Source: Escherichia coli (GTDB lineage Bacteria > Pseudomonadota > Gammaproteobacteria > Enterobacterales > Enterobacteriaceae). From it: a stretch of 64,000 nucleotides of DNA. The notes under the pieces were generated by a model. It did not search any database. It saw only the letters and a program-made list of their open reading frames with translations, and was not told where the DNA came from. A program made the translations under genes and the position numbers. The stretch lies in NCBI RefSeq assembly GCF_001677475.2, contig NZ_CP015229.1; one strand, given 5' to 3'. Shown piece by piece: positions 15,873-15,906 of this stretch; the first letter of the stretch is position 1; every line of letters begins with the position of its first letter.

Positions 15873-15895
15873 AATTAAGGATGTTGTAACTAAAG
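15873..15895 (+). promoter_or_regulatory. Replication terminus site TerB-like Tus-binding sequence (AATTAAGGATGTTGTAACTAAAGT) overlapping tus promoter
   Basis: Contains Ter core GTTGTAAC and flanking consensus; located immediately upstream of tus as expected for TerB. Confidence 0.75.
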
Positions 15896-15906
15896 TGGTT
15901 AATATT

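Follow-up and report, generated by a model that had tools for sequence, protein, structure and literature searches.

The rstB-tus interval and the site within it

The feature considered here is a Ter site that lies between rstB and tus in the window, by which we mean the whole stretch of Escherichia coli DNA that was analysed, 64,000 nucleotides in length. The local gene order is that of E. coli K-12, ydgI-folM-ydgC-rstA-rstB-(site)-tus-fumC, with the site in the rstB-tus intergenic region and on the tus strand. Conservation was assessed over 80 species-representative tus loci of the Enterobacteriaceae, in which Tus is 68-98% identical, and counts out of 80 refer to this set. The features of the interval, in order along the window, are as follows.

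14530-15831, + strand: rstB; its stop codon is 14 nt upstream of the -35-like hexamer
15846-15851, + strand: putative -35-like hexamer TGGTCA, matching TTGACA at 4/6 positions, 17 nt upstream of the -10 hexamer
15866-15874, + strand: putative extended -10-like element TGcTATAAA, with the hexamer TATAAA at 15869-15874; its last base is Ter position 1
15874-15896, + strand: 23-bp Ter site
15879, - strand: C(6) of the G·C(6) pair; the G at Ter position 6 is present and is invariant in 80/80 loci
15883-15890, + strand: core block GTTGTAAC, an exact match; Ter positions 10-17, invariant in 80/80 loci
15897-15906, + strand: 10-nt spacer of the 5′ leader between Ter and the ATG, read from the sequence
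15907-16836, + strand: tus coding sequence (309 amino acids and stop), an open reading frame annotated as tus in E. coli genomes

The site itself, ATTAAGGATGTTGTAACTAAAGT, runs from 15874 (position 1) to 15896 (position 23), and the window across 15840-15909 reads ...ggtggtcaagtcaccaccactgtgctataaATTAAGGATGTTGTAACTAAAGTggttaatattATG. Positions are numbered by the usual convention, which assigns 10-17 to GTTGTAAC. The original prediction marked out 15873-15906, a span that comprises the Ter site, one extra base on its left and the 10-nt spacer, and described a Ter-type 23-mer carrying the core and ending 11 bp before the tus ATG. The distance is right if counted to the start codon itself: 10 nt (15897-15906) lie between the site and the ATG, and the A of the ATG is the 11th base. 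A 10-nt gap to the start codon is stated in PMC8707476 too. The 23-mer also stands, since a search of the window with K-12 TerB, allowing up to three mismatches, returned one match (two mismatches, 21/23 identical), and the same search of 100 dinucleotide-preserving shuffles of the window returned 0 matches. In the alignment to TerA-J that had been proposed as a check, TerB is the best match to the window site.

The 8-mer GTTGTAAC taken alone occurs four times in the window where 1.7 occurrences are expected, an excess that is not significant. Its three other copies, at 33618, 61717 and 63352, were considered as Ter sites and rejected; they share no more than 9-14 of 23 positions with any of TerA-J, so that 15874-15896 is the only Ter-like site in the 64-kb window. 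An Rfam scan of the whole 64-kb window gave no hits.

The cognate Tus gene is intact in the window. Its ATG lies at 15907-15909, and the open reading frame as listed has a longer, GTG-initiated form from 15895. The ATG is taken as the start because it is the one annotated in E. coli genomes and because the protein read from it is colinear with crystallised Tus from residue 1. A weak Shine-Dalgarno-like GTGG at 15895-15898 straddles the 3′ end of Ter. The encoded protein is identical at 307/309 residues to the Tus of PDB entries 1ECR, 2EWJ, 2I05 and 2I06 (E = 3.7e-207), differing from the crystallised protein only at I23A and N225D, and the Pfam family PF05472 (Ter) is recorded on a protein identical to it. 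At its other end tus overlaps the convergent fumC by 4 nt at their 3′ ends (16833-16836), as in K-12.

The window as a whole is colinear with E. coli K-12 MG1655 positions 1,668,353-1,730,961, on the same strand and at ~98.3% identity, with one IS insertion and a few small indels between the two. K-12 TerB, AATAAGTATGTTGTAACTAAAGT, lies at 1,684,226-1,684,248 (+), and K-12 tus starts at 1,684,259. The window site aligns with TerB base for base and differs from it only by A2T and T7G. Given this alignment and an intact, near-identical Tus, the site is, as judged by sequence and position, the E. coli TerB ortholog adjoining an intact tus gene. What the window holds is TerB in its textbook arrangement, not a discovery. 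Knowledge of TerB, and of the way it overlaps the tus promoter, dates back to about 1989-1991. The linkage of Ter to tus across the Enterobacterales, together with the division of fork traps into type I and type II classes, was published in 2021 (Toft et al., PMC8707476; reviewed in PMC10331603).

Among 5,426 complete E. coli genomes, a collection from which Shigella is excluded by name, identity to the window is at best 98.4% across the tus region and 98.9% across 20 kb. Two draft assemblies come closer over 12-21 kb, GCA_025810455.1 at 100% and GCA_016118635.1 at 99.99%. The source lineage may belong to Shigella or to a poorly sampled clade of E. coli. Some further observations concern the rest of the window and related genomes. 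The fumC-fumA intergenic region is interrupted at 18367-19807 by an IS3-family element of 1441 bp, which E. coli annotations name ISEcB1 and which is flanked by a 4-bp target duplication; it lies 130 nt before the start of fumC, in the expected position of the promoter region of that gene. An insertion at this site recurs in E. coli 19SZHZ869Rt and 23CRST009, whose flanks are only ~98.3% identical to the window, and the element is absent from the 99.99%-identical draft GCA_016118635.1. In comparison with K-12, ~150 bp of the ydgA-uidC spacer (K-12 1,691,400-1,691,551) are missing from the window at 24464-24492, ~120 bp are extra at 58861-58980, and staggered self-similar alignments at 41495-42014 reveal internal tandem repeats of ~96 bp in rsxC. 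Many draft contigs that carry the YnfL allele of the window break off precisely at the spacer between ynfL and ynfM, a pattern suggestive of a repeat or an IS there in those draft genomes; in the window the spacer is uninterrupted and measures 106 bp (1241-1346). In one E. coli record, the replicon that bears the tus/TerB region is labelled a plasmid.

Overlap of the site with the tus promoter

The putative promoter elements of tus are conserved well beyond the window. The GGTGGTCA block at the -35 recurs in Escherichia, Citrobacter and Intestinirhabdus loci. From ACTGTGCTATAAA to beyond the ATG, the sequence is the same in eight E. coli strains, save for the two polymorphisms in Ter and a one-base insertion, which falls in the outer region of Ter in strains WP2-W18 and YL03. 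One of the eight is a strain whose sequence ahead of the -35 region has been exchanged for ISEcp1. More widely, TGnTAYW stands upstream of Ter position 1 (within 4-15 nt) in 58/80 species loci, its hexamer begins 4-5 nt ahead of Ter position 1 in 51 of the 80, and a further 17/80 carry TAYAGT 11-15 nt upstream of Ter position 1.

A generic sigma-70 promoter/terminator scan of 15500-17000 reported no promoter. The scan demands T at position 6 of the hexamer and for that reason missed TATAAA; set against a hexamer that is conserved, this rule led us to reject the result as proof that a promoter is absent. The promoter call therefore rests on relaxed matching, conservation and the literature. A perfect TTGACA at 15828-15833 was also considered as the -35 element and rejected, there being no usable -10 element at 16-18 nt downstream of it; the same positions read CTGACA in K-12 and other strains.

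With this promoter, transcription of tus would start at ~15880-15882, about 7 nt after the hexamer and at Ter positions 7-9. The putative core promoter elements overlap or abut the predicted Tus-binding site, an arrangement that is conserved across strains and genera, and because the -10-like element ends on Ter position 1, bound Tus would be expected to cover the start-site region. Tus on 15874-15896 would begin at the final base of the -10 hexamer and reach across the probable start and the first ~16 nt of the leader. Bound in this way it would hinder RNA polymerase at the tus promoter, which would keep Tus at a low and self-limited level. The original prediction had described the arrangement as one that allows Tus autoregulation, and this accords both with the position of the -10-like element and with the accounts in PMC8347550, PMC8707476 and PMC12809603. 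The first of these cites Roecklein et al. 1991 for the overlap of terB with the tus promoter and for autoregulation of Tus through terB, and the other two (PMC8707476 with its references 23 and 24) likewise describe this overlap and the autoregulation of tus via the Ter site in K-12.

A rearranged locus is found in E. coli KTa005 (NZ_CP147084.1), where ISEcp1 (1053-2560 of the extracted locus) has taken the place of the rstB side right up to the tus -35 region, leaving TerB, the -10 element and tus untouched. ISEcp1 carries an outward promoter, and tus in KTa005 could consequently be driven against its own operator.

Polarity of the site and its two proposed roles

Arrest at a Ter site is polar: the lock forms upon unwinding by a helicase that arrives at the G·C(6) end, and C(6) docks into Tus (PMC8707476). 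The G·C(6) end of the window site (15879) faces left, so that the site would arrest forks running from left to right, co-directionally with tus transcription, and let those running from right to left pass. The further claim that the orientation of the site sets which fork is arrested thus holds, with left to right as the blocked direction.

The direction in which forks usually cross the region can be judged by proxy. The + strand of the window has a GC skew of -0.022 (z = -4.0), with negative values to the left and to the right of the site alike; in the homologous segment of K-12 the skew is -0.023. A G-rich - strand indicates that the region is normally replicated from right to left, in which case the usual fork would meet the permissive face. 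Oriented motifs are too few to serve as a separate pointer towards dif, with KOPS at 0 on the + strand and 1 on the - strand, and Chi at 2 and 3, respectively. A search for dif within the 64-kb window found none, and TerC and oriC also lie outside it. In K-12, oriC lies at 3,925,744-3,925,975, dif at 1,590,750-1,590,777 and TerC at 1,609,157-1,609,179 (+), and both dif and TerC are to the left of TerB. The clockwise fork of K-12 would travel 93 kb past dif and 75 kb past TerC before it reached TerB, and the blocking face of TerB is turned towards both. Taken together, GC skew and K-12 synteny place the terminus of the source genome, in all likelihood, to the left of the site, on the side of its blocking face, and the orientation is as expected.

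It is very probable that the site is TerB in a chromosome of the E. coli lineage, at which one Tus-DNA complex serves both as the operator of tus and as a polar fork barrier. The analysis itself established the sequence identity, position, strand and conservation of the site, the intact state of tus and a sign of GC skew that fits the polarity; Tus binding, repression and the lock mechanism are taken from the K-12 literature, and the start site and promoter hexamers are placed by inference. On the side of replication, a replisome travelling from left to right (in K-12, the clockwise fork that has gone past dif and TerC) would unwind the site from its G·C(6) side, upon which C(6) would flip into the Tus pocket, lock the complex and arrest the fork. 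A replisome travelling from right to left, the normal direction here, would meet the permissive face and displace Tus. High-affinity binding of Tus and the C(6) lock are to be expected of the window allele, given the conservation of its core and what has been described in the literature.

The two roles need not be of equal weight. The site might serve as an operator only, seldom or never arresting forks here because the inner TerC catches those that cross the terminus. K-12 TerB is second in line behind TerC, and it has been proposed that it is used mainly when TerC is unbound (PMC8707476). Moreover, a Ter site on the same strand lies directly upstream of tus in 80/80 species loci, whatever the architecture of the trap, and this is evidence of selection on the regulatory arrangement itself. 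However, TerB ranks among the sites of strongest fork pausing in wild-type K-12 (Duggin and Bell 2009, summarised in PMC10331603), and the window site has kept G6 and the whole of the locking core. In several genomes of Shigella flexneri and S. boydii, terC has the opposite orientation and the terC-terB interval contains dif (PMC8347550), which makes terB the innermost barrier on its side. Nor are the roles of operator and barrier mutually exclusive, and a site confined to the first is improbable. Whether TerB is innermost or a back-up would change how often the site is used, not its nature.

The T2/G7 allele and comparison with other terminators

Across the 80 loci, the bases at Ter positions 5, 6 and 8-19 never change, and those at positions 1-4, 7 and 20-23 vary. 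All 14 invariant positions, including G6, are present in the window site, and the two differences fall among the variable ones, with T at position 2 in 18/80 loci and G at position 7 in 4/80. The gap between Ter and the start codon is 6-10 nt in 76/80 loci, 18 nt in three and 27 nt in one, and the spacer usually begins with a G-rich triplet. Within E. coli, the same Ter allele is found in BL21, strain 118 and PapRG-06-5, and the exact 51 nt at 15862-15912 (the -10 element, Ter, leader and ATG) occur in 1254 of 5423 complete genomes (~23%). Carriers of the 51-nt allele include O157:H7 and B derivatives, and the K-12 form, two mismatches away, is the majority. Other Ter sites of E. coli carry G7 as well: K-12 TerC does so, as verified in the K-12 sequence, and so does TerG. 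A survey by Goodall et al. (PMC8347550) found that ter sites vary by 1-2 bp across phylogroups, mostly at positions 1-5, 7 and 19-23, and that position 7 makes no base-specific contact with Tus.

By these comparisons, T2/G7 is a frequent natural allele, and nothing points to a loss of function. The site matters only for correct annotation, and the value added here is small: the tabulation over 80 species, in which positions 5-6 and 8-19 are invariant and a gap of 6-10 nt prevails, and the recognition that the window carries a common natural variant and not a mutation.

A subtler effect of the allele can be envisaged. Position 2 is a discriminator base immediately downstream of the -10 hexamer, and position 7 lies approximately at the transcription start, so that T2 and G7 could alter the tus promoter. 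If the allele were not neutral, it might change promoter strength, the choice of start site or the residence time of Tus, giving the lineages that share it, such as O157:H7 and B strains, a Tus set-point or a strength of the TerB barrier that differs from K-12; separately, TerB might be the innermost barrier in the source lineage, as it is in several Shigella genomes. Such lineage-specific behaviour has perhaps a slim chance of being right, and a change in the Tus set-point through T2/G7 is unlikely.

That A2T and T7G should instead impair Tus binding or locking, leaving a degenerate Ter with reduced activity as barrier and operator, is very improbable. The window site is indeed not identical to the biochemically characterised K-12 TerB, but both changes fall at positions that vary among functional Ter sites, G7 is shared with TerC and TerG, and Tus makes no base-specific contact at position 7 (PMC8347550). 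The allele is present in ~23% of complete E. coli genomes, and 14/14 of the positions invariant across 80 species are intact in it. Finally, a chance occurrence of GTTGTAAC with no relation to Tus, for which the count of four 8-mers against 1.7 expected might be invoked, is already refuted and has a negligible probability, given that the 21/23 match is absent from shuffled sequence, that the site is syntenic with TerB and that it is kept upstream of tus in 80/80 species.

Among known systems, the site is like K-12 TerB in its position between rstB and tus, its presence on the tus strand, the 10-nt gap, the flanking -10-like element, G6 and positions 8-23, and unlike it in T2 and G7, two changes at positions that vary in nature. 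E. coli TerC and TerG have the same invariant core and the G7 of the window site, but they occupy other chromosomal positions, are not linked to tus and differ at outer positions (19/23 and 18/23 identical to the window site, respectively). The RTP-Ter system of Bacillus subtilis is alike in that the gene for the terminator protein adjoins a terminator site and fork arrest is polar, but protein and DNA sequence are both unrelated, and binding is by a pair of dimers rather than by a monomer with a base-flipping lock. Also comparable are the tus-vicinal Ter1 sites of type I traps, found in Edwardsiella tarda, Dickeya, Proteus and Yersinia (PMC8707476), which likewise lie just upstream of the tus start and act as barrier and operator. 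In a type I trap, however, the tus-vicinal Ter is innermost, whereas in the E. coli-type (type II) trap it lies behind TerC.
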